A stretch of 49,012 bases of DNA from Candidatus Methylomirabilota bacterium. Its GTDB lineage: Bacteria > Methylomirabilota > Methylomirabilia > Methylomirabilales > CSP1-5. The DNA is taken from the NCBI GenBank assembly GCA_027293415.1, contig JAPUFX010000135.1, positions 1-49,012 of the forward strand, read 5' to 3'. Numbering within the stretch: position 1 is the first letter of the stretch; the number at the start of each line of letters is the position of its first letter. A program made the position numbers and the translations under genes. Positions 1-10,674 of this stretch are shown here, one piece after another. The notes beneath the pieces are model-generated. The model was given only the letters and a program-made list of their open reading frames with translations. It made no database searches and had not been told where the DNA came from.

Positions 1-66
1 GAACAGGTTCTGGCCGGCGTCGCCTCCTTGCAGTCGGCCCTCGAGAAAGGCGGCACACAGGGCCAT
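1..66 (-). CDS. Possible 5' end of a gene running off the window (MALCAAFLEGRLQGGDAGQNLF...)
   Basis: ATG at 66 just downstream of the crt stop, open to position 1; too short to identify. Confidence 0.25.
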   Translation of the reverse strand, partial: MALCAAFLEGRLQGGDAGQNLF

Positions 67-77
67 CGATAGCGGGG

Positions 78-860
78 CTACCTCCCTTTGAAGTGGGGCT
101 GCCGCTTCTCAAGGAAGGCGTTGACCCCTTCCGTCTTGTCCTCGGTGGCAAAGCAGACGGCGAAGGTGTTGGCCTCCAGGGTCAATGCGGCCATAAGATC
201 AATCTGATATCCCCCGTCGATGACCCTCTTCGCGAGCTCGAGTACCACCGCACCCTTGCTTATGACCTGCTGAGCGAATTTCCTCACCTCCGTCATCAGG
301 TCGGCGGCCGGGAAGACCTTGTTCACGAGGCCGATCCTGTAAGCCTCCTGCGCATCGATCATCTCTCCGGTGTAGATCAGTTCTTTCGCCCGCGGCTTGC
401 CAATCAGGCGGGCGAGGCGTTGTGTGCCGCCCCCCCCAGGAATGAATCCCAGATTCACCTCCGGCTGGCCGAACCGGGCCCGATCCGACGCGAAGATGAA
501 GTCGCAGGCGAGGGCCAGCTCGCACCCGGCTCCCAGACAAAAGCCATTGACGGCTGCGATGATTGGCTTCTTCAGGCGCTCGATCCGGTTGAAGGCTGCC
601 TGGAAGGCCTGAGAGGATTGAAGGGCCTCCAGGGGGCTCAACTGCTGGAATTCGGTGATGTCGGCACCAGCGGCGAAGGCCTTCTCCCCAGCCCCCGTCA
701 GGATCAAGACCCGAACTTCTTGGTCCGCCTCGGCCTGGTCCGACACCCGGGTAAGCTCCTGGATCATCATCCGATTAATCGCATTAAGCGCCTTGGGACG
801 ATTCAAGGTGATGAGGGCGACCCCATCGGTGACCTGGTAGCTCAGCGTCTGATGGTCCAC
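78..860 (-). CDS. crt: Enoyl-CoA hydratase (crotonase)
   Basis: LNRPKALNA, AGADITEF, GAGCELALACD, FGQPEVNLG crotonase motifs; GTG start 3 nt after hbd stop. Confidence 0.93.
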   Translation of the reverse strand: MDHQTLSYQVTDGVALITLNRPKALNAINRMMIQELTRVSDQAEADQEVRVLILTGAGEKAFAAGADITEFQQLSPLEALQSSQAFQAAFNRIERLKKPIIAAVNGFCLGAGCELALACDFIFASDRARFGQPEVNLGFIPGGGGTQRLARLIGKPRAKELIYTGEMIDAQEAYRIGLVNKVFPAADLMTEVRKFAQQVISKGAVVLELAKRVIDGGYQIDLMAALTLEANTFAVCFATEDKTEGVNAFLEKRQPHFKGR

Positions 861-863
861 AAC

Positions 864-1730
864 TTATTCCTTTCTCTTGTGTTCATATGTGTAAAAACCG
901 CGGCCCTTCTTTTGGCCGAGGAAGCCAGCTTCGACCATGCGAACAAGGAGAGGACAGGGACCGTATTTGGGTTCCCCAAAACCCTCGTGAAGGGTCTGCA
1001 AGATGGCGAGGCAGACGTCGAGGCCGATCAGATCAGCCAAGGCTAGAGGGCCCATAGGGTGGTTCGCACCGAGTTTCATCACATTGTCGATGGCCTCGGC
1101 GGTTCCTACCCCCTCCATCAGGGCGTAGATCGCCTCGTTGATCATGGGCAAGATGATTCGATTCGCAAGGAAACCGGGAAAATCGGTGGCCCTCACAGGG
1201 GTCTTGCCTATCCGCTGAGCCAGTTGGTGGGTGACGGCAACTGTTTTTTCTTCGGTGGCGAAGCCCGGGATGATCTCTACCAACCGCATGATGGGGACAG
1301 GGTTGAAGAAGTGCATCCCGATGACCCGAGAAGGGGCGGAAGTGGTTGAGGCGATCTTGGTGATTGAAATGGAAGACGTGTTCGTGGCCAGGATCACCTC
1401 GGGTCTGCACGCCCGGTCGAGTTCTTCGAACACACCCTTTTTGACCGAGAAGTTTTCAGCCACTGCTTCGATGACAAAGTCGGCATCGGCGCAATCGGAG
1501 AGGGCGGTAGTCAAGGTGAGGTTTTTGAGCATTTCCCCTTTCTGGGCCTCAGTGAGCTTTCCTTTTTCCACCCCTTTGGCGAGACCGAAAGTAATCCGGC
1601 TCTTGGCACTTTCAAGGATGTCTTTTGCCACATCCTCGAGGAGGACCTGAAGCCCTGCCTGGAGGGCCACCTGAGTGATTCCATGTCCCATGGTCCCCGC
1701 ACCCACCACGGCAATAACCTTGATGTCCAT
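864..1730 (-). CDS. hbd: 3-hydroxybutyryl-CoA dehydrogenase
   Basis: GAGTMGHG NAD-binding motif, TNTSS, GMHFFNP, GFLANR, HPMGPL; strong SD upstream. Confidence 0.94.
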   Translation of the reverse strand: MDIKVIAVVGAGTMGHGITQVALQAGLQVLLEDVAKDILESAKSRITFGLAKGVEKGKLTEAQKGEMLKNLTLTTALSDCADADFVIEAVAENFSVKKGVFEELDRACRPEVILATNTSSISITKIASTTSAPSRVIGMHFFNPVPIMRLVEIIPGFATEEKTVAVTHQLAQRIGKTPVRATDFPGFLANRIILPMINEAIYALMEGVGTAEAIDNVMKLGANHPMGPLALADLIGLDVCLAILQTLHEGFGEPKYGPCPLLVRMVEAGFLGQKKGRGFYTYEHKRKE

Positions 1731-1799
1731 CCTCCAGTCCCTCCTTTCAGGGTAAAGTCGCGTTCGGAGTCCCGACTTAGGACGGGGATCCTTTGCCCT

Positions 1800-2040
1800 T
1801 CAGATTCTCTCTACGATGAGAACAATCCCCTCTCCGCCACCGAGGCAGAGGGTAAGAGTCCCCGTCGGGCCTAACGTTCTTACATGAGGTTCAAGAGAGT
1901 GGTCAGGATGCGGGCTCCCGTGGCACCAACGCGATGACCCAACCCCCCCTTTGACGTTCACGCGGTCCTCCGTCACTCCCAGGATGTGCATGTTGGCTGA
2001 GGCGGCCGCTGCAAAAGTCTCATTGATTTCGAACTGTCGT
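1800..2040 (-). pseudogene. Decayed C-terminal fragment of a second acetyl-CoA acetyltransferase (thiolase)
   Basis: FEINETFAA..DRVNVKGG, then frameshifted LGHRVGATGARILTTLLNLM*ER*ARRG, then LCLGGGEGIVLIVERI; colinear with the phaA 3' end, two indels and two in-frame stops. Confidence 0.88.
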
Positions 2041-2131
2041 ACATTCAAGAACGGAAGCCCGGGACCCTCTCTTCCGCTCCCTTCGCCTAGCCCACCCAAG
2101 AGGTTAAACCAATAAAACACGGCGCGTTAAT

Positions 2132-2156
2132 AGTCAATGGATTTTTGCGCGGCATC
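2132..2156 (-). promoter_or_regulatory. Candidate -35 (TTGACT) and PhaR-like box upstream of the thiolase remnant-hbd-crt
   Basis: Minus strand GATGCCGCGCAAAAATCCATTGACT; same box-to--35 spacing as the 3956-3980 promoter; -10 weak. Confidence 0.45.
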
Positions 2157-2333
2157 AGAATAATTAATGCCTAGATTCAACTGCTAACGTTTAAAGGGAT
2201 CCATGGCTAGAAGGCTGGTAAGTAACGGTGAAAGGCTACCCTTTGAGCGGGATCCAGAGATCCACGATAAGGAGAGCGGTGGGAGCGTTGATGGCGGTTG
2301 AAGCGCCGGTTCGACCCCTCCATGGAAAAGTGC

Positions 2334-2448
2334 GCCACCGTCGCCATTAACTACCAGCGAAATGAGGCATCAGCCAAGGAGGTCGTTCAGGAAATCGAAA
2401 GGATGGGGGGAAGATCGGGCGATATCTATCAGGCCGAGGTGAGCGACC
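2334..2448 (+). repeat. Inverted copy of an internal phaB segment (partner 5202-5316)
   Basis: 113/115 nt identical to the reverse complement of 5202-5316 (mismatches at 2337 and 2438). Confidence 0.95.
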
Positions 2449-2453
2449 GACGC

Positions 2454-3635
2454 TCAGACCCTCTCCACGATCAGAGCGATCGCCTCTCCTCCGCCGAGGC
2501 AGACGGTGCACAGTCCCCGTCGGGCCTGGCGTTCTTGCATGAGGTACAGCAGGGTGGTGAGGACACGAGCGCCGGTGGCACCAATAGGATGACCCAGCGC
2601 CACCACGCCTCCCTTGAGGTTTACGCGGTCGTCGGTCAGGCCGAGAATGCGCATGTTGGCCAAGGCCACCGCCGCAAAGGCCTCATTGATCTCAAAGAGG
2701 TCAATATCGTCGATTGTCAAACCGGTCCGCTTTAAAACCTGCTTGACCGACTCTGCCGGCGCAAGCGTGAACCATTCCGGTGCCAAGGCCGCCTCGGCAA
2801 ATCCCACGATCCGGGCCAACGGCTTGATTCCCAATTGCGCGGCCCGCCTTCCCGATAGCACGGTCAACGCCGCGGCCCCATCGTTCACGGATGGCGCGTT
2901 CGCCGCTGTAATCGTTCCACCTTCCTTGAACACGGGTTTCAGCGTTGGGATCTTCTCAAGCGCCAGGCGGTTCGGTTCCTCATCCTCCTCCACGAGGCTT
3001 GTCTCGCCCTTGCGTCCGGTCACGGGAACCTGAATGATTTCGGCCCTGAATTGTCCCTCGCGCTGCGCGCTCAAAGCGCGCATGTAGCTCTGCAGAGCAA
3101 ATCGGTCCTGTTCCTCCCGAGAGAGCTCGTATCTTGCAGCACACAATTCCCCGCACAGACCGACGTGCATATCGTTGAGGACATCCCAGAGACCATCGTG
3201 AATCATGCTGTCGATGAGCTGGCCATGCCCCATCCGGTACCCGTTCCGGGCCTTGTCCAGCAGATACGGGGCCCGGCTCATGTTCTCCATGCCGCCAGCC
3301 ACCAGGATCTCGGCTTCACCACTTCGGATGGCCTGGGCCGCCATCGTGACCGCCTTCAGGGCAGAGCCGCAGACCTTGTTGATCAAAGTTGCCCCGACCG
3401 ACTCAGGAAGGCCAGCCGCGGTAGCCGCTTGTCGCGCAGGAGCCATACCCATCCCGGCGCTCACGACGTTTCCAAGATAAACCTCGTCAACCTGGGCAGG
3501 CTCGAGGTGTGCACGACGCACCGCTTCGGCAACGACCAGGCCCCCCAGCTTGGGTGCCGCAACCGACGCTAAAGCTCCGCTGAAGCTTCCGATAGGCGTC
3601 CGGACAGCGCTCCCGATGACGACATCATCCATCAC
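2454..3635 (-). CDS. phaA: Acetyl-CoA C-acetyltransferase (beta-ketothiolase)
   Basis: NKVCGS, NEAFA, GHPIGATG, CLGGG thiolase motifs; SD AAGGAGG; context with phaB and phaR. Confidence 0.94.
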   Translation of the reverse strand: MMDDVVIGSAVRTPIGSFSGALASVAAPKLGGLVVAEAVRRAHLEPAQVDEVYLGNVVSAGMGMAPARQAATAAGLPESVGATLINKVCGSALKAVTMAAQAIRSGEAEILVAGGMENMSRAPYLLDKARNGYRMGHGQLIDSMIHDGLWDVLNDMHVGLCGELCAARYELSREEQDRFALQSYMRALSAQREGQFRAEIIQVPVTGRKGETSLVEEDEEPNRLALEKIPTLKPVFKEGGTITAANAPSVNDGAAALTVLSGRRAAQLGIKPLARIVGFAEAALAPEWFTLAPAESVKQVLKRTGLTIDDIDLFEINEAFAAVALANMRILGLTDDRVNLKGGVVALGHPIGATGARVLTTLLYLMQERQARRGLCTVCLGGGEAIALIVERV

Positions 3636-3648
3636 GAGCCTCCTTCCT

Positions 3649-3885
3649 CTATGCTGCGCTCTTCGGGATCCATTCGGCCAGTGCTATGCCGGGTCGACAG
3701 TCTTTATGTTCCGGAACGTGTTGCTCGATCTTATACCGGCAGCGCGGGCAGCAAGGGCCGAGATGGTAACCGTGGTCCCAGCAAAAGCTCCCTTCGATTT
3801 CGAGGGTGGATGTCTGCTTTCCTCCTGGCTCGTCAGCTGCAGTTCTTGCTCCAGGAAGCGGTTGACCATTTCGAAACAGATCCAT
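3649..3885 (-). CDS. Small Cys/His-rich hypothetical protein (78 aa)
   Basis: ATG 3885 with AAGGAAAG SD, downstream of a strong promoter; stop lies just before the phaA SD; CWDHGYHLGPCCPRC...HKDC. Confidence 0.6.
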   Translation of the reverse strand: MDLFRNGQPLPGARTAADEPGGKQTSTLEIEGSFCWDHGYHLGPCCPRCRYKIEQHVPEHKDCRPGIALAEWIPKSAA

Positions 3886-3932
3886 CAGACTTTCCTTGCG
3901 GTTGGTCGATCCAGATGACACAATCGCTAACT

Positions 3933-3978
3933 AATATAACACTATGCGTCATAGATGTCAAGATGATTTTGCGCTGCA
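3933..3978 (-). promoter_or_regulatory. sigma70 promoter for small ORF-phaA with PhaR-like box
   Basis: TTGACA (3961-3956)-N17-TATATT (3938-3933); TGCAGCGCA at 3978-3970; CTATG-N3-CATAG palindrome in the spacer. Confidence 0.75.
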
Positions 3979-4071
3979 TTAAAGAACGTGAATACTTGGA
4001 TTCAAGTGTCTGATTTCAAAGGGGCATATGAGGGAGGAGACGAAAGTTTTGGGGAGAGTGGTGAGGAATGG

Positions 4072-4599
4072 CTAGGTAGTTTCGACGGGGCTTTTCTCCG
4101 GGTCTGTGATCCGCTTCTCCAAGCGCTCAAGGCTCTCCTTGAGCAACTCGAGTTCGGCTTTCAAAAGGGCTTCGGCGGTCTGCTCGGTCTGCTCCGCCGA
4201 GGTTTTTGGGGACCGATCGGGCTTCCTCCCCGGAGGTCCCCAGCCCCTCATTGCCACTTCCTTCCAGAGTTTTCCCGCTTCTCGCTGTGTGGTCGTGAAA
4301 GTCTCCAGGCTCGAAAAGAGCCCCCGCTGAAAGAGATGTTGGAGCGATTCCCCGTACTGGATCAGTTGGTGCAGGAAGCTGACCGGCACGAGGTTTTTGT
4401 GCTTCTTCTCCTCCTCCAGGATGATCTGCGCCAGGGTGACCGCGGTCAGGTCTTCGTGTGAGGTGGTATCCACCACCTTGACCTGCTTCCCCTGCCGGAT
4501 GAGACCAGCAATCTCCTCGAGCCTGATATAGCGGCTTCGGCTGGGGTCGTAGAGCTTCCGGTTGCTATACTTTTTGATGAGGACAGGATCATCCGCCAT
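4072..4599 (-). CDS. phaR: Polyhydroxyalkanoate synthesis repressor
   Basis: IKKYSNRKLYD...RYIRLEEIAGLIRQG...EDLTAVTLAQII DNA-binding domain; start moved to ATG 4599 (SD GGAAAGG). Confidence 0.92.
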   Translation of the reverse strand: MADDPVLIKKYSNRKLYDPSRSRYIRLEEIAGLIRQGKQVKVVDTTSHEDLTAVTLAQIILEEEKKHKNLVPVSFLHQLIQYGESLQHLFQRGLFSSLETFTTTQREAGKLWKEVAMRGWGPPGRKPDRSPKTSAEQTEQTAEALLKAELELLKESLERLEKRITDPEKSPVETT

Positions 4600-6341: not shown

Positions 6342-6370
6342 TTGACAGGGTGCTTGTAATCCCATAAAAT
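6342..6370 (+). promoter_or_regulatory. Near-consensus sigma70 promoter of the Ubl operon
   Basis: TTGACA (6342-6347)-N17-TAAAAT (6365-6370). Confidence 0.8.
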
Positions 6371-6405
6371 GCATGCGTTCGAAGGAGACCCGTTCCCGCA
6401 AGGAT

Positions 6406-8163
6406 ATGGTGGCGGTGAGGCCAATCCCGCAATGGGCTGAAGATCTCTATGAGCGGATGGAGGCAGACACCTCGAGCCTCTTCGTCCTCCACCATAATAT
6501 CGCCGATTACGCCCCCCTCAATCAGAGCTTTCTCCCCTTTTCGACCTTTCTCACGCAGTGGCTGGGGATAACAGATCCCGTCATTTTCTACAATCGCTCC
6601 ATGGGCCTTCGCTTTCCCAATGACGAGAGCGAGCGCCGATTTCGAGAGGCGGCTGGTCTCAAGGCCAAGCCCGTTCAGGACGAGCGAGAGGCATACCTGG
6701 AAGAGCAGCGGCAGCGGGCCTTAAGGGCGTTAGGCGAGGCGACCGGTGCCGAGCCTCCCCTTCCTACTCATGCCAGCAAGGTTGTTCCACTCATTGGTCA
6801 ATGCCTCCGGTCGGGACGTCTCCGGAATGGCAGCCGGCGCGCGATCGTGGTCCTGGAGTACGCCGAGAGTATCGCGCCAGCCGCCGATTTTTCCTGTATG
6901 AATGAGGACGATCGAAACAATTTGGTGGCTCTGCTCAGCCTCGCAACCGATCGCACCGTCCGGGAGCAGGGCGGGATGGTTCTCCTCACCGTCAGCAATC
7001 TGGCCGACTTGCACCCGGCGCTGCGACAACCGGGCGATCGGGTCGAGCTCATCGAGGTTCCTCTCCCCGATGAGGGGGACCGGCTTGAGTATATCGAGCA
7101 CCTGTTGGACCAGGATGGCGCGACCCTCAGCATGAGTGCAGAGGCCTTTGCCCGAGCGACCGCCGGTCTGACCCGGTTGCACCTCGAGCAGCTCTGGCGC
7201 CAGGCGAAGGCTAAGGGGTCTCCTTTGACCTTTGAGGAGGTCAAGAGGCGCAAACGAGAGATCCTGCGGCACGATCTCTACGGGATCGTCGAACTGGTCG
7301 ACCCGAGTTTTGGACTCGAGGCCATCGGGGGGCTTGCAGCGGTCAGGGAATTCTTCCGTGAAGTGATCCAGGCCATCCGGGATGGGGACGTGAAGATGGT
7401 CCCTCGTGGGATCACGCTCGTCGGTCCGCCCGGGGTGGGGAAGACAGCGGTGGCCGAGGCGCTGGCCAAGGAGTGCGGCTTCAATTTCGTCAAGATCACT
7501 AACCCGCGGGAGAAATGGGTGGGGGCCTCGGAACGGAACTTCTGGAAGATTCTTCAATCCCTCCGATCGTTGACCCCTCTGGTAGTTTTAGAAGATGAGG
7601 CAGATCAGACCGAGCAATCCCGGGACGAAATTAGTGGCGATTCCGGAGTGACCAACCGGATTCGTCAGATGCGCTTTGAGTTCACCGGAGACCCTACCAT
7701 CCAGGGAAAGGTTTTGTGGATCCGGATCACAAATCGTCCGGACAAGCTAGATCCCGCGGAGCGTCGCTCAGGCCGGTTCAGCGAGCGGATTCCCCTGTTG
7801 ATGCCGGACGCGGATGAGCGGCTCTCTATCTTTGCGCTCATGCCAAAGAAACACGGCTTTGTCACGGTGAACGTGAACTTTCCTGCCCTGGCGGACCTCT
7901 GTGAGGAGCGCTTTCCGGGACAAATTACGGGTGCGGATATCGAGGAGATTTCGCTCAGGGCCTACCGCCATGCCAGGGTTCGGGGGGCGGATGAGGTTGC
8001 GGAAAAAGATTACCGCTGGGCTATTGAGGACTTCATCCCCTCTCAATCGGAGGAGCTGATCCGCCGGCAGGAGCTCATGGCGGTCGCCCACTGTTCCTCC
8101 CGCCGCTTCCTCCCTGAGCGGTACCGGGATCTCGGAGTCGACGAGGTCCGATCCCTCGGGTAG
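6406..8163 (+). CDS. AAA+ ATPase (COG0464-like), degenerate N-terminal region plus one intact classical AAA module
   Basis: Walker A GPPGVGKT (7423-7446), pore loop EKWVGASE, Walker B VVLEDE (7582-7599), SRH TNRPDKLDPAERRSGRF; ATG 6373 lies upstream of the predicted TSS, so 6406 or a nearby GTG is preferred. Confidence 0.9.
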   Translation: MVAVRPIPQWAEDLYERMEADTSSLFVLHHNIADYAPLNQSFLPFSTFLTQWLGITDPVIFYNRSMGLRFPNDESERRFREAAGLKAKPVQDEREAYLEEQRQRALRALGEATGAEPPLPTHASKVVPLIGQCLRSGRLRNGSRRAIVVLEYAESIAPAADFSCMNEDDRNNLVALLSLATDRTVREQGGMVLLTVSNLADLHPALRQPGDRVELIEVPLPDEGDRLEYIEHLLDQDGATLSMSAEAFARATAGLTRLHLEQLWRQAKAKGSPLTFEEVKRRKREILRHDLYGIVELVDPSFGLEAIGGLAAVREFFREVIQAIRDGDVKMVPRGITLVGPPGVGKTAVAEALAKECGFNFVKITNPREKWVGASERNFWKILQSLRSLTPLVVLEDEADQTEQSRDEISGDSGVTNRIRQMRFEFTGDPTIQGKVLWIRITNRPDKLDPAERRSGRFSERIPLLMPDADERLSIFALMPKKHGFVTVNVNFPALADLCEERFPGQITGADIEEISLRAYRHARVRGADEVAEKDYRWAIEDFIPSQSEELIRRQELMAVAHCSSRRFLPERYRDLGVDEVRSLG

Positions 8164-8180
8164 TGCATCGGGAGGCGTTG

Positions 8181-8960
8181 ATGGGGGAGTATATCGAGAT
8201 TGAGGGAGGGGTGGTTCGTCTCCTCCGTCATAGTGGGCAGGGCGAGGCCGTCCTCGATAGAGAAGTCTCGCTCCATACCTTTCTCCAAACCCTCCTTGCT
8301 ACCACGGGCGGTTTCTGCCGCCTTCCTGTCCTTCCCATCGGCACACGGTTCGTCCTGGGCCGGGGGTCGGATCTGCTGATTGCCGTGGAGCAGCCCCCCC
8401 AGGTTCGCCACTTCACCTGGCGGCCGGCCGGGCCGCAGGGAGCGGCCCGAGATTATGCAGTGGCCTTTCCCTACATTCTGTACCTGTTGCTCTTCCACGA
8501 GGAGTCCTTCGACGAGATGCGAATTTACTGCCGCCCTGCTCCGCTGACCTCGGATACTGACCCCCTGTATCTGTCAAACCTTTGGAATGTTTCCGCAACG
8601 GAGATGCCCATGGCCAAGTGTCGGGCCTGCCTTCAGGGTCGCCCTCCGTTCGACGATCTGACCCTCGCCGCGCAAGTGCAAGCTGTCATCGAGTTCTTCT
8701 GGGGGACCGGTTTCAATACCGCCATCGAAGAGAGTTGCTTTCAGCGGGCGGCAAAGCGCGATAGCCGCATTGCCACCCTGGAGGCGTGGGAAGTGGCGAG
8801 CCGACAGAATTCTCTTTTCCCCCTCGGGGTGGATTGGGAGCCAGTGGGGATGGGTCTCAGCGAGATTGCGGATGGGCTCATGGCCTGGCGGGGGGCTCCC
8901 CCACCTATTGACGATACAGCGGACTTGGTAGATCTCATCTATCGGGTCCAGGAGGGGTGA
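8181..8960 (+). CDS. Prokaryotic E2-like (Prok-E2_D / PRTRC protein B-like) conjugating protein
   Basis: FPYILYLL...LYLSNLWNV...CRACLQG...FFWGTGFN...LEAWE pattern; candidate Cys codons at 8619 and 8628; SD GGAGG before ATG 8181; context. Confidence 0.75.
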   Translation: MGEYIEIEGGVVRLLRHSGQGEAVLDREVSLHTFLQTLLATTGGFCRLPVLPIGTRFVLGRGSDLLIAVEQPPQVRHFTWRPAGPQGAARDYAVAFPYILYLLLFHEESFDEMRIYCRPAPLTSDTDPLYLSNLWNVSATEMPMAKCRACLQGRPPFDDLTLAAQVQAVIEFFWGTGFNTAIEESCFQRAAKRDSRIATLEAWEVASRQNSLFPLGVDWEPVGMGLSEIADGLMAWRGAPPPIDDTADLVDLIYRVQEG

Positions 8961-8964
8961 GGGA

Positions 8965-9633
8965 TTGTTCCCGATCTATCTAAAGGAGCCGGGGTTTCAC
9001 GAGCCCGAAGAGTCGATTTACTATCTGGTGACGAGGGACGGCCTCTTCCAGGTCAAGCGGACCCCCCTCTTTCGCTCTCGGATTCGGGTCCCGGGGCTCT
9101 CATGGCTCGAGGAAGAGCAGGAAGGCGCAGATTTCCTCCTTCCGGTCATTCCAGCGAAGATCTTGGGGGAAACCATGGCCTTCTTCCGGGAGGTCTTTCG
9201 GAAGTATCGTGCCGAGGCTGCTGTCCTTGTCTATATCCGCGAGGGGGATGGGGAGTACGAGATCCGGATTCCCCCCCAGACGGTGGCGGGAGGGCATTGC
9301 CGGTATGAGGTCGGTCCGAACCCTGCCGGCCTTCGCCGGGTAGGGACGATTCACAGCCACGCCGCGGTCGAGGCCTTTCATTCGGAGCTGGATGATGTGG
9401 ACGAGCAGTATGACGATGGGGTCCATGTGACCATTGGATCCCTCCACGCGAAACCCACCGTCTCTTGCTCGCTCGTCGTGGACGGTCGGCGCTTCGATCT
9501 CCGGCCGGAGGCGATCCTAGAAGTGATGCCGTGGCAACTGGACCCGACAATCCGGCTCGAGGACTCGCAGGAGGTGACAGCAGAGCCCCCGCCCGGAGAT
9601 TCGGATCCCACCGGCCGGCCCTCTGCCATTTAA
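8965..9633 (+). CDS. JAB/JAMM (MPN+) metallopeptidase, Prok-JAB / PRTRC protein A-like
   Basis: Exact HxH-x7-S-x2-D motif HSHAAVEAFHSELD (H130, H132, S140, D143) and upstream Glu in AEAAV; TTG start. Confidence 0.9.
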   Translation: MFPIYLKEPGFHEPEESIYYLVTRDGLFQVKRTPLFRSRIRVPGLSWLEEEQEGADFLLPVIPAKILGETMAFFREVFRKYRAEAAVLVYIREGDGEYEIRIPPQTVAGGHCRYEVGPNPAGLRRVGTIHSHAAVEAFHSELDDVDEQYDDGVHVTIGSLHAKPTVSCSLVVDGRRFDLRPEAILEVMPWQLDPTIRLEDSQEVTAEPPPGDSDPTGRPSAI

Positions 9634-9639
9634 GGAAGG

Positions 9640-9715
9640 GTCCAAAGTCCGAGGTCCGAAGTCGACCAGTCTCCTGGGGTCTTCGGTTTTTGACGCTGGA
9701 CTTTGGACGTCGGAC
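9640..9715. repeat. Heptamer tandem-repeat hairpin (GTCCNNN units)
   Basis: gtccaaa gtccgag gtccgaa gtcgacc ... ttttgac gctggac tttggac gtcggac. Confidence 0.8.
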
Positions 9716-9724
9716 GAATAGACA

Positions 9725-10408
9725 ATGATGGAGATCAAGGTCATCGGTATTGGGGGGATTGGCTGCGCCCTTCTCCCTTTCCTCGCCAGGTATCTCAATT
9801 ACCGAGGGGAGCGGGTGCGCATCGCCCTCATTGACGGGGATGAGTTTCAGCGGTCAAATGCGGACAGACAAGCCTTTGGGACGTTGGGAAACAAAGCAAA
9901 GGTGAAGGCCGGTGAGTTGGCTCGAGAGTTTGAGGGCCTTTCCTTCCGGGCCGTCCCCGAATATATCACTGAGACGAACATCGCCCAGCACCTCCAAGAA
10001 GGGGACACGATTTTTCTCGCGGTAGACAACCATAAGACGCGAAAGTTGGTGAGTGACTATTGCGAGAAGCTCACGGCCATGGCCTTGATTTCTGGGGGGA
10101 ATGATTTTACGGATGGCAATGTTCAGATTCATATCCGTCAAGGAGGTCGCGACCGAACGGCACCTATCACTCGATTTCATCCGGAGATTCGGGATCCCCA
10201 AGATCGTTCACCTGCAGAAATGTCGTGTGAGGAGCTGATGGAGCGTGGTGCACCCCAGCTCCTCTTTACGAATCTCACCATTGCTTCGGCGATGCTCAAC
10301 GCGTTCTATAGCACCTGCGAAGAAAAACTGCAGTACGGCGAGGTATACCTTGATATCATCGAGGGGAAGAGCAATCCGCTCAAGCGCGAGGGAGAGCGAG
10401 AGCCATGA
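9725..10408 (+). CDS. E1/ThiF-family adenylyltransferase
   Basis: GIGGIG, IDGD, SNADRQ, NKA, AVDN..R, ISGGND; C-terminal SCEE (C168) candidate catalytic Cys; no Zn-binding CxxC pairs. Confidence 0.92.
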   Translation: MMEIKVIGIGGIGCALLPFLARYLNYRGERVRIALIDGDEFQRSNADRQAFGTLGNKAKVKAGELAREFEGLSFRAVPEYITETNIAQHLQEGDTIFLAVDNHKTRKLVSDYCEKLTAMALISGGNDFTDGNVQIHIRQGGRDRTAPITRFHPEIRDPQDRSPAEMSCEELMERGAPQLLFTNLTIASAMLNAFYSTCEEKLQYGEVYLDIIEGKSNPLKREGEREP

Positions 10409-10674
10409 CCGAGCCACTGAAACAGGCGCAACGGGTGCGTCCGGCATCCCCGACAGGGACGCAGGAGACCGTGAGGGTTATCTATGGGGTCCATTCCCTT
10501 GACGCGAACGTCGCCGGTCGAACCGTCGGAGAGATCCGCGCCGCGTTGAGGCAGGCGTTGAACATCGGCCCCCAGGCCGTTGCGGTCGTTGATGGCCAGG
10601 AAGTCAAGGAGAGTTTCGTTCTTCAAACAGGGGAGATTTTGGAATTTGTCCGCCTTGCCGGCGAAAAAGGCTGA
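10405..10674 (+). CDS. Ubiquitin-like beta-grasp protein (EsaB/ThiS-like, PRTRC protein C-like)
   Basis: TVGEIRAAL...AVVDGQEV...VLQTGEILEFVRLAGEKG* C-terminal Gly; ATGA overlap with the E1 stop. Confidence 0.85.
   Translation: MTEPLKQAQRVRPASPTGTQETVRVIYGVHSLDANVAGRTVGEIRAALRQALNIGPQAVAVVDGQEVKESFVLQTGEILEFVRLAGEKG

Follow-up and report, generated by a model that had tools for sequence, protein, structure and literature searches.

The window analysed here, a stretch of 49,012 nucleotides (contig JAPUFX010000135.1, assembly GCA_027293415.1) from a Candidatus Methylomirabilota bacterium, raises the question of what an AAA+ ATPase does as the first gene of an operon that also encodes a ubiquitin-like protein (Ubl). 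The operon is compact, runs on the plus strand from 6342 to 10674, and encodes in this order the ATPase, a 265-residue protein with a single cysteine (the partner protein), a JAB metallopeptidase, a minimal E1 and the Ubl. In several uncultured bacterial lineages the ATPase co-occurs obligately with these four genes of the Ubl pathway, and the link is strong. A preliminary description, made from the DNA letters alone, had proposed that the ATPase is a substrate-threading unfoldase that could read the Ubl tag. The operon comprises the following features.

6342..6370, plus strand: sigma-70-like promoter, TTGACA-17 nucleotides-TAAAAT, matching 11 of 12 consensus positions
6406..7287, plus strand: degenerate first module (D1) of the AAA+ ATPase, without a P-loop; profile and fold matches to p97/Cdc48
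7288..8163, plus strand: active second module (D2) of the AAA+ ATPase; Pfam AAA; key residues invariant in 30 homologues
8181..8960, plus strand: partner protein of about 260 residues ('E2L'); reading frame open from 8163, ATG at 8181 the likely start; invariant Cys and Asn
8965..9633, plus strand: JAB/JAMM metallopeptidase; intact HxHx7Sx2D motif (HSHAAVEAFHSELD from residue 130)
9725..10408, plus strand: ThiF-family adenylating enzyme, a minimal E1-like protein of 227 residues; conserved Cys168 (SCEE)
10405..10674, plus strand: Ubl, 89 residues; its start overlaps the E1 stop (ATGA)

The genes flanking the operon are unrelated: upstream lie those for a MaoC dehydratase and for polyhydroxybutyrate (PHB), downstream a convergent one for a membrane protein. 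The ATPase reading frame is open from an ATG at 6373, and homologues start at the ATG at 6406 (MVAV...). Because the homologues begin there and the promoter occupies 6342-6370, we take 6406 as the true start, in agreement with the 585-residue protein (6406-8163, plus strand) of the preliminary description. Residue numbers of the ATPase below count from the ATG at 6373 (translation of 6373-8163).

Relatives of the ATPase were collected in a scan of one genome per species with full-length alignment, which gave 115 proteins; the best 80 loci were read and their open reading frames searched with profiles. In Methylomirabilota and Acidobacteriota (ATPase identity 55-98%) the genes again stand in the order ATPase, partner, JAB, E1, Ubl. 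Among the 21 loci of these two groups with at least 3 kb of downstream sequence, the JAB and the E1 gene are each found in 20, the partner gene in 17 and the Ubl gene in 16. Where the partner gene is missing from the operon, it is present elsewhere in six of seven genomes, twice as a tandem pair. The tandem paralogues lie at 18399-20461 of contig C24 in genome G157 and at 6338-8371 of contig C14 in genome G159 (loci L090 and L091). One Methylomirabilota subclade (loci L020, L021, L028 and L067) carries the ATPase, partner, JAB and E1 genes and no recognisable Ubl gene within 1.5 kb past E1; its Ubl may be encoded elsewhere.

In the Desulfobaccales (39 loci, ATPase identity 47-49%) the same genes are found scattered. 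The ATPase and partner genes lie on the same strand, 29-4306 nucleotides apart, in 36 of the 39 loci, the Ubl gene is found 3-9 kb upstream in 23 loci, mostly on the opposite strand, and the JAB and E1 genes are paired at a separate locus in all six genomes examined. The distance between the ATPase and E1 genes reaches 1.03 Mb in one Desulfobaccales genome (G001) and 2.05 Mb in another (G207). The two genes nonetheless keep company genome-wide. Both are present in 26 of the 151 Methylomirabilota genomes, the ATPase alone in none, E1 alone in one and neither in 124 (Fisher p 2e-28); for the 83 Desulfobaccales genomes the corresponding counts are 42, 2, 1 and 38 (Fisher p 5e-20). Carrier genomes thus have both genes in 26 of 27 and 42 of 45 cases, respectively. 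The lone Methylomirabilota genome with E1 only is an 88%-complete metagenome-assembled genome (MAG), and its match lies at a contig end. As the genes are unlinked in the Desulfobaccales, joint carriage in one operon does not explain the correlation. All homologues of at least 47% identity with a readable context or genome are accompanied by the 265-residue protein, JAB, E1 and Ubl, even if these are unlinked. Whether close homologues of the ATPase mostly have Ubl genes had been set beforehand as the test of the proposed connection; they do, and the ATPase and E1 co-occur in two taxa.

A third lineage adds support that is independent of these two. In a Chloroflexi sister clade (ATPase identity 49-52%) the ATPase gene is followed by one for a 234-residue protein with an N-terminal coiled coil, which contains YDHPHITRGQPCLGNV, and then by one for a 200-residue JAB (HSHVRMPAFWSDTD; Prok-JAB E 0.0015); examples are locus L098, 11856-13205, and locus L003, 9799-10485. 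By eye, YDHPHITRGQPCLGNV, with its HPH..C, resembles the HPN..Cys motif of UBC-type enzymes, for which there is no HMM support. The E2-like protein of this clade is thus a different one from the partner of the window operon. Neither E1 nor Ubl is encoded near the Chloroflexi ATPase locus, the only genome checked being an incomplete 1.4-Mb MAG. In a quick maximum-likelihood tree, a single clade (SH-aLRT 97) unites all ATPases whose genes accompany those of an E2-like protein and a JAB.

The sequence of the ATPase points to a complete motor in its C-terminal half. D2 contains Walker A GPPGVGKT (residues 351-358, nucleotides 7423-7446), the pore loop EKWVGASE (residues 380-387, nucleotides 7510-7533), Walker B VVLEDEAD (residues 404-411, nucleotides 7582-7605), the second region of homology TNRPDKLDPAERRSGRF with R465 and R468 (residues 453-469, nucleotides 7729-7779) and a conserved C-terminal CSSRRFLPERYR (nucleotides 8092-8127). 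Pfam AAA (PF00004) covers residues 348-473 with E 3e-27, and its score of 96.1 bits exceeds the cut-off of 21.2. Both Walker motifs, the pore-loop residues W382-V383-G384, the sensor-1 residue N454 and the arginine fingers R465 and R468 are invariant among 30 homologues of 48-93% identity. The protein thus has the features of the classical AAA clade, namely Walker motifs, the PF00004 score, an aromatic-hydrophobic-Gly pore loop 1, a sensor-1 Asn and two Arg fingers. Among solved structures, the D2 modules of VAT and p97 come closest (E 4e-54); the top NCBIfam matches are CDC48 and next PAN, both far under their cut-offs, and the label that JGI gives to the homologues, 'SpoVK/Ycf46/Vps4 family', is a name at COG level only. 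D2 is a catalytically complete, strongly conserved module, predicted to carry out ATP-driven translocation. The C-terminus reads ...VRSLG and is not of the HbYX type, and the tail past residue 585 is not conserved.

The N-terminal half has the marks of a decayed copy. A motif scan of the translation found no G-x4-GK[ST] in the first 320 residues; the Walker A position of D1 is occupied by LFVLHHNIADY (residues 36-46, nucleotides 6478-6510) and the Walker B position by VVLEYAE (residues 159-165, nucleotides 6847-6867). After strand 2 of D1, at the position expected for a pore loop, YNRSxGLxF is nearly invariant, distant relatives included. A D1-only profile matches p97/Cdc48/VAT with E 8e-12 (profile positions 127-279), and the AlphaFold model of the ATPase (pLDDT 83, pTM 0.77) aligns with p97/Cdc48 through D1 and D2 over ~590-650 columns, with a TM score of up to 0.58. 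No N-domain is present in the model, in which ~24 residues with one short helix (20-30) precede the first strand of D1. The N-terminal ~300 residues are, as profile and model agree, an AAA module that has lost its P-loop. The protein would then be a two-tier AAA+ ATPase that resembles Cdc48 but has no N-domain, and by family analogy a hexameric ring. The preliminary description fares well in these respects: all of the motifs it named lie where it had placed them, its classical-clade pore loop is borne out by the invariant KWVG, the layout of inactive D1 and active D2 is upheld by the D1 profile match, the p97 fold match and the intact D2 motifs, and it had rightly read the C-terminus as lacking an HbYX tail.

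The other proteins of the operon differ in how readily they can be placed. The partner has one invariant cysteine (C156 of the reading frame, 60 of 60 sequences) and an invariant N142, in PNLWNV, 14 residues before it. Neither single sequences nor a profile of the partner gave a Pfam, NCBIfam or PDB sequence match, and its model (pLDDT 85) has no fold match in the PDB at E <= 0.001 (Foldseek). An hhalign comparison of alignment to alignment with PRTRC_B (Prok-E2_D) is marginal at E 0.057, yet colinear over 187 columns, and the N, C, F, W and FP positions that are invariant in each family fall on one another; with single PRTRC_B sequences hhalign is not significant. The partner may be related, at a very great distance, to PRTRC protein B/Prok-E2_D.

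For the JAB, the full JAMM motif is found in 36 of 36 sequences (E84, H130, H132, S140 and D143 invariant); it matches Prok-JAB with E 3.5e-5 and PRTRC_A with E 1.5e-8, 34.5 bits against a cut-off of 101.8. The E1 matches ThiF with E 2e-16 and PRTRC_ThiF with E 3e-14, 52.8 bits against a cut-off of 144.75, and its C168 is 97% conserved across 33 sequences. A selenocysteine in the E1 was considered and rejected: the apparent in-frame TGA of four genomes is a natural stop, one codon earlier. The Ubl has the invariant C-terminus LEFVRLAGEKG. Past GEKG, 34 of 41 distinct Ubls have non-conserved extensions of 1-100 residues, and these Ubls are therefore precursors; the window Ubl has no such extension. 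A polar N-terminal tail is 20-23 residues long in 40 of the 41, and an orthologue from the Desulfobaccales gives a weak ThiS match (E 1.8e-4). Because of its Lys-Gly end, digestion with trypsin or Lys-C would leave modified lysines with one Gly only (+57.02 Da), and standard proteomics of di-Gly remnants would therefore miss Ubl conjugates.

These parts suggest, tentatively and at a little short of an even chance, that the ATPase is the dedicated motor of a five-part Ubl system and engages tagged proteins to unfold or extract them. The parts and their genomic coupling are observed; the steps would run as follows. The JAB would trim the variable extension past ...GEKG, and the E1 would adenylate Gly86 of the Ubl and possibly pass it to its own Cys168. 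The Ubl would then move to the invariant cysteine of the 260-residue partner and from there to lysines of the target. In the ATPase hexamer, D1 would serve as a nucleotide-free structural ring and D2, with its Trp-Val-Gly pore loop, as the translocating ring; the hexamer would grip the tag, most plausibly by the flexible N-terminal tail of the Ubl with its constant length of 20-23 residues, as Mpa grips Pup. Pulling on the tag would unfold or extract the tagged protein, and the JAB would finally remove and recycle the Ubl.

Several points weigh against this. The tightest adjacency is that of the ATPase and the 260-residue partner, not of the ATPase and the Ubl, which would equally fit an ATPase acting on the partner. 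The threading of Ubl conjugates by the ATPase is inferred. In the ATPase sequence nothing can be shown to be specific to the Ubl: relatives without Ubl genes also have the N-terminal PxW helix, the D1 motifs and the C-terminal SS[RK]..P, and the distant relatives are linked to PspA, not to tags. The identity of the partner as an E2 is weakly supported and unproven, and protein conjugation itself, which depends on it, is likewise unproven.

An ATPase that remodels the conjugation machinery is the main rival. It might, for example, take apart or reset oligomers or dead-end complexes of the partner, as TRIP13 does with HORMA proteins and NSF with SNAREs, and so gate or recycle the pathway. The pairing with the partner, which is retained in the Desulfobaccales when the rest of the system is scattered, and the E2-like gene directly after the ATPase gene in the Chloroflexi speak for such a role, and the distant relatives that adjoin the polymer-forming PspA suggest an ancestral function in disassembly. 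In seven Methylomirabilota loci, however, the partner is not adjacent, the features of the Ubl suit a tag for pore entry, and oligomerisation of the partner is without evidence; on balance we consider remodelling unlikely, if deserving of serious attention. The PspA neighbours lead to a related proposal, in which the ATPase is a Vps4-like remodeller of membrane-associated polymers, as is thought of the PspA-linked relatives, and its linkage to the Ubl incidental. Relatives with 33-35% identity adjoin PspA/IM30 and a membrane protein: locus L078 (7653-11683) and likewise L079, L081 and L083 (35% identity) encode a YbjQ-like protein, PspA/IM30, a 278-residue membrane or coiled-coil protein and the ATPase. 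These Blastocatellia proteins share the architecture, full-length homology and D1 motifs of the window ATPase within one broad family (840 D1 clusters at 50% identity, E <= 1e-3, mostly of 560-620 residues), and a published survey (Ravi et al., doi 10.1101/2020.09.24.301986) notes the pairing of PspA with a protein whose two AAA copies include an inactive one at the N-terminus. On the other side, the Patescibacteria and PspA-linked Blastocatellia ATPases fall outside the Ubl-linked clade in the tree, their loci have no Ubl genes, the neighbours lack JAMM, HPN..C and GxGxxG motifs, and their genomes are without E1, whereas neither the window operon nor the ~70 loci of the Ubl-linked clade contain PspA, and the ATPase and E1 co-occur almost perfectly even when unlinked. 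This proposal is highly improbable. The two-AAA architecture with a dead N-terminal copy is thus already known, and the Ubl-linked clade appears to be the new part.

Tagged proteins might also be passed to a peptidase encoded elsewhere, of the 20S, ClpP or FtsH/Lon type, which would make the system a degradation pathway; most AAA unfoldases that read tags, such as Mpa, PAN and the Rpt ring, do pass their substrates on in this way. The preliminary description had seen no protease gene, which holds for the operon, as it does for every locus read, the JAB being the only peptidase, and fails for the genome: on another contig (G000 contig C83, locus L099, 1-3027) lies a Pup-type 20S proteasome cluster with a Dop/PafA-like C-terminal fragment (3-443), and genes resembling PrcB (657-1448), PrcA (1450-2142) and PafA/Dop (2200-3027), the last of them truncated where the contig stops. 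PrcA, however, is present in 120 of the 151 Methylomirabilota genomes irrespective of the ATPase system and is missing from the whole set of 83 Desulfobaccales genomes, among them the 44 that carry the ATPase. A 20S partnership was rejected as unlikely on this distribution, and since the latter is unrelated to the ATPase, the earlier preference for a segregase still stands. With no compartmental peptidase co-occurring, remodelling or extraction is likelier than obligate degradation, and the missing HbYX motif and the unconserved C-terminal tail point the same way; we judge degradation improbable. The Ubl could also be a sulfur carrier of a biosynthetic, ThiS/MoaD-type pathway, trimmed by the JAB, with the ATPase in an unrelated or assembly role. 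The weak ThiS match, the minimal ThiF/MoeB-like E1 and the unproven E2 identity of the partner would allow this, and JAMM proteases trim carrier precursors in sulfur-carrier pathways of the QbsE/QbsD type as well. Yet the Ubl ends in Lys-Gly rather than Gly-Gly, no rhodanese, cysteine-synthase or cofactor gene is linked in any of the three lineages, JAB and E1 match the PRTRC Ubl cassette, with its identical gene order, better than any other family, and an unfoldase is an obligate partner, which together make such a pathway distinctly improbable.

Returning to the reading as a tag-engaging motor, the system can be compared with known ones. With Cdc48/p97/VAT the ATPase shares two stacked AAA modules (full-length fold match), with D2 as the closest sequence, a Trp-hydrophobic-Gly pore loop, the absence of a built-in peptidase and the genetic link with E1, E2-like and JAB proteins and with a tag of the beta-grasp fold. 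It differs in having neither the N-domain (double-psi-barrel/beta-clam) nor a P-loop in D1, and its TIGR01243 score is 124.7 bits, where the cut-off is 802.65; an adaptor of the Ufd1/Npl4 type was not recognised, and the tag is a bacterial Ubl ending in Lys-Gly. The Pup-Mpa/ARC-proteasome route of Actinobacteria and Nitrospirota likewise combines a bacterial tag with a dedicated AAA+ ring, a flexible tag segment able to enter the pore and a dedicated removal enzyme. Pup, however, is disordered instead of beta-grasp and is ligated by PafA instead of an E1, and in Mpa, coiled-coil and OB domains are combined with a tail that docks on the proteasome, none of which is present in the window ATPase, whose model shows neither domain and whose sequence ends in ...VRSLG; the pup_AAA model (TIGR03689) scores it at 43.8 bits against a cut-off of 504.75.

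Closest in gene order is the PRTRC (ParB-related, ThiF-related) cassette of plasmids and integrative elements (TIGR03735-03738), which to our knowledge is functionally uncharacterised. It shows the order B (Prok-E2_D), A (JAB), ThiF, small Ubl with similar protein sizes, provides the best NCBIfam matches of JAB and E1, and has in protein B the sequence with which the partner aligns colinearly, at marginal significance. All scores are under the cut-offs, though, B and C are not matched, ParB and the D and E proteins are absent, and the window-type genes are chromosomal, scattered in one order, and accompanied by an AAA+ ATPase that PRTRC does not have. Characterised bacterial Ubl systems (type II CBASS, Bil and Bub) conjugate their tags, as far as we know, without a dedicated reader motor. 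Their operons combine a Ubl, E1, E2 and JAB or another peptidase, and none is described with an AAA+ unfoldase (PMC11601596). The Bil E1, of ~450 residues, has tandem adenylation domains and a Cys domain, in contrast to the single domain of the 227-residue window E1; PADLOC reports for the window a BilD match of only E 6.7e-6 over a partial stretch and no match to BilA, BilB or BilC.

A self-contained, proteasome-independent pathway of tagging and unfolding may exist in several bacterial phyla, at a chance noticeably short of even. Such a pathway would comprise a minimal E1, a novel single-Cys carrier, a Ubl with a tail for pore entry, a Cdc48-like threader without N-domain, and recycling by the JAB. 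If true, bacteria would have an equivalent of the eukaryotic ubiquitin-Cdc48/Rpn11 logic, and perhaps a related one; the pairing of a tag with an AAA+ reader would exist in bacteria without a proteasome, which bears on the origin of the ubiquitin-Cdc48-Rpn11 arrangement, and the five proteins would offer a model, small enough to be reconstituted, of how an AAA+ ring recognises and pulls on a ubiquitin-fold tag. In the part of the literature covered, we found no description of an AAA+ ATPase within a bacterial Ubl/E1/E2/JAB system, and an earlier mention may exist.

The distribution is patchy within orders, with complete Methylomirabilota genomes that are devoid of the system and about half of the Desulfobaccales having it. 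The system is chromosomal and, in the Desulfobaccales, its local gene order is conserved; this speaks for a cellular role rather than that of a mobile element. A phage or mobile origin was considered and rejected, as viral contigs yielded no relative and the PADLOC matches, to IetA, TRIP13 and BilD, are all weak. No PADLOC defence model was matched and, unlike Bil, Bub and CBASS, the loci lie outside defence islands; nothing found supports an antiviral role.

Genes near the Desulfobaccales loci were also considered as further universal parts, namely those of 251- and 213-residue unknowns, an FlK thioesterase, an FMN reductase, a 317-residue unknown and a TGS GTPase. None of them is found near the Methylomirabilota operons, and their recurrence therefore reflects a gene order kept within that lineage. 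The 317-residue conserved protein (MAAEWQIVAFPVILPWREEFW...) adjoins the Ubl gene in the Desulfobaccales (locus L039, 3540-6747, and ~23 other loci), and in a few loci the TGS-domain GTPase also stands beside it. In seven Methylomirabilota and Acidobacteriota loci, and not in the window, a single-module AAA gene of ~310 codons lies convergent to and just 3' of the Ubl gene, each time on the minus strand (L001 15310-16239, L014 12527-13468, L023 3987-4979, L024 5788-6726, L030 6050-7006, L069 2708-3655 and L074 2570-3517). It may encode an accessory second ATPase or merely reflect conserved gene order.

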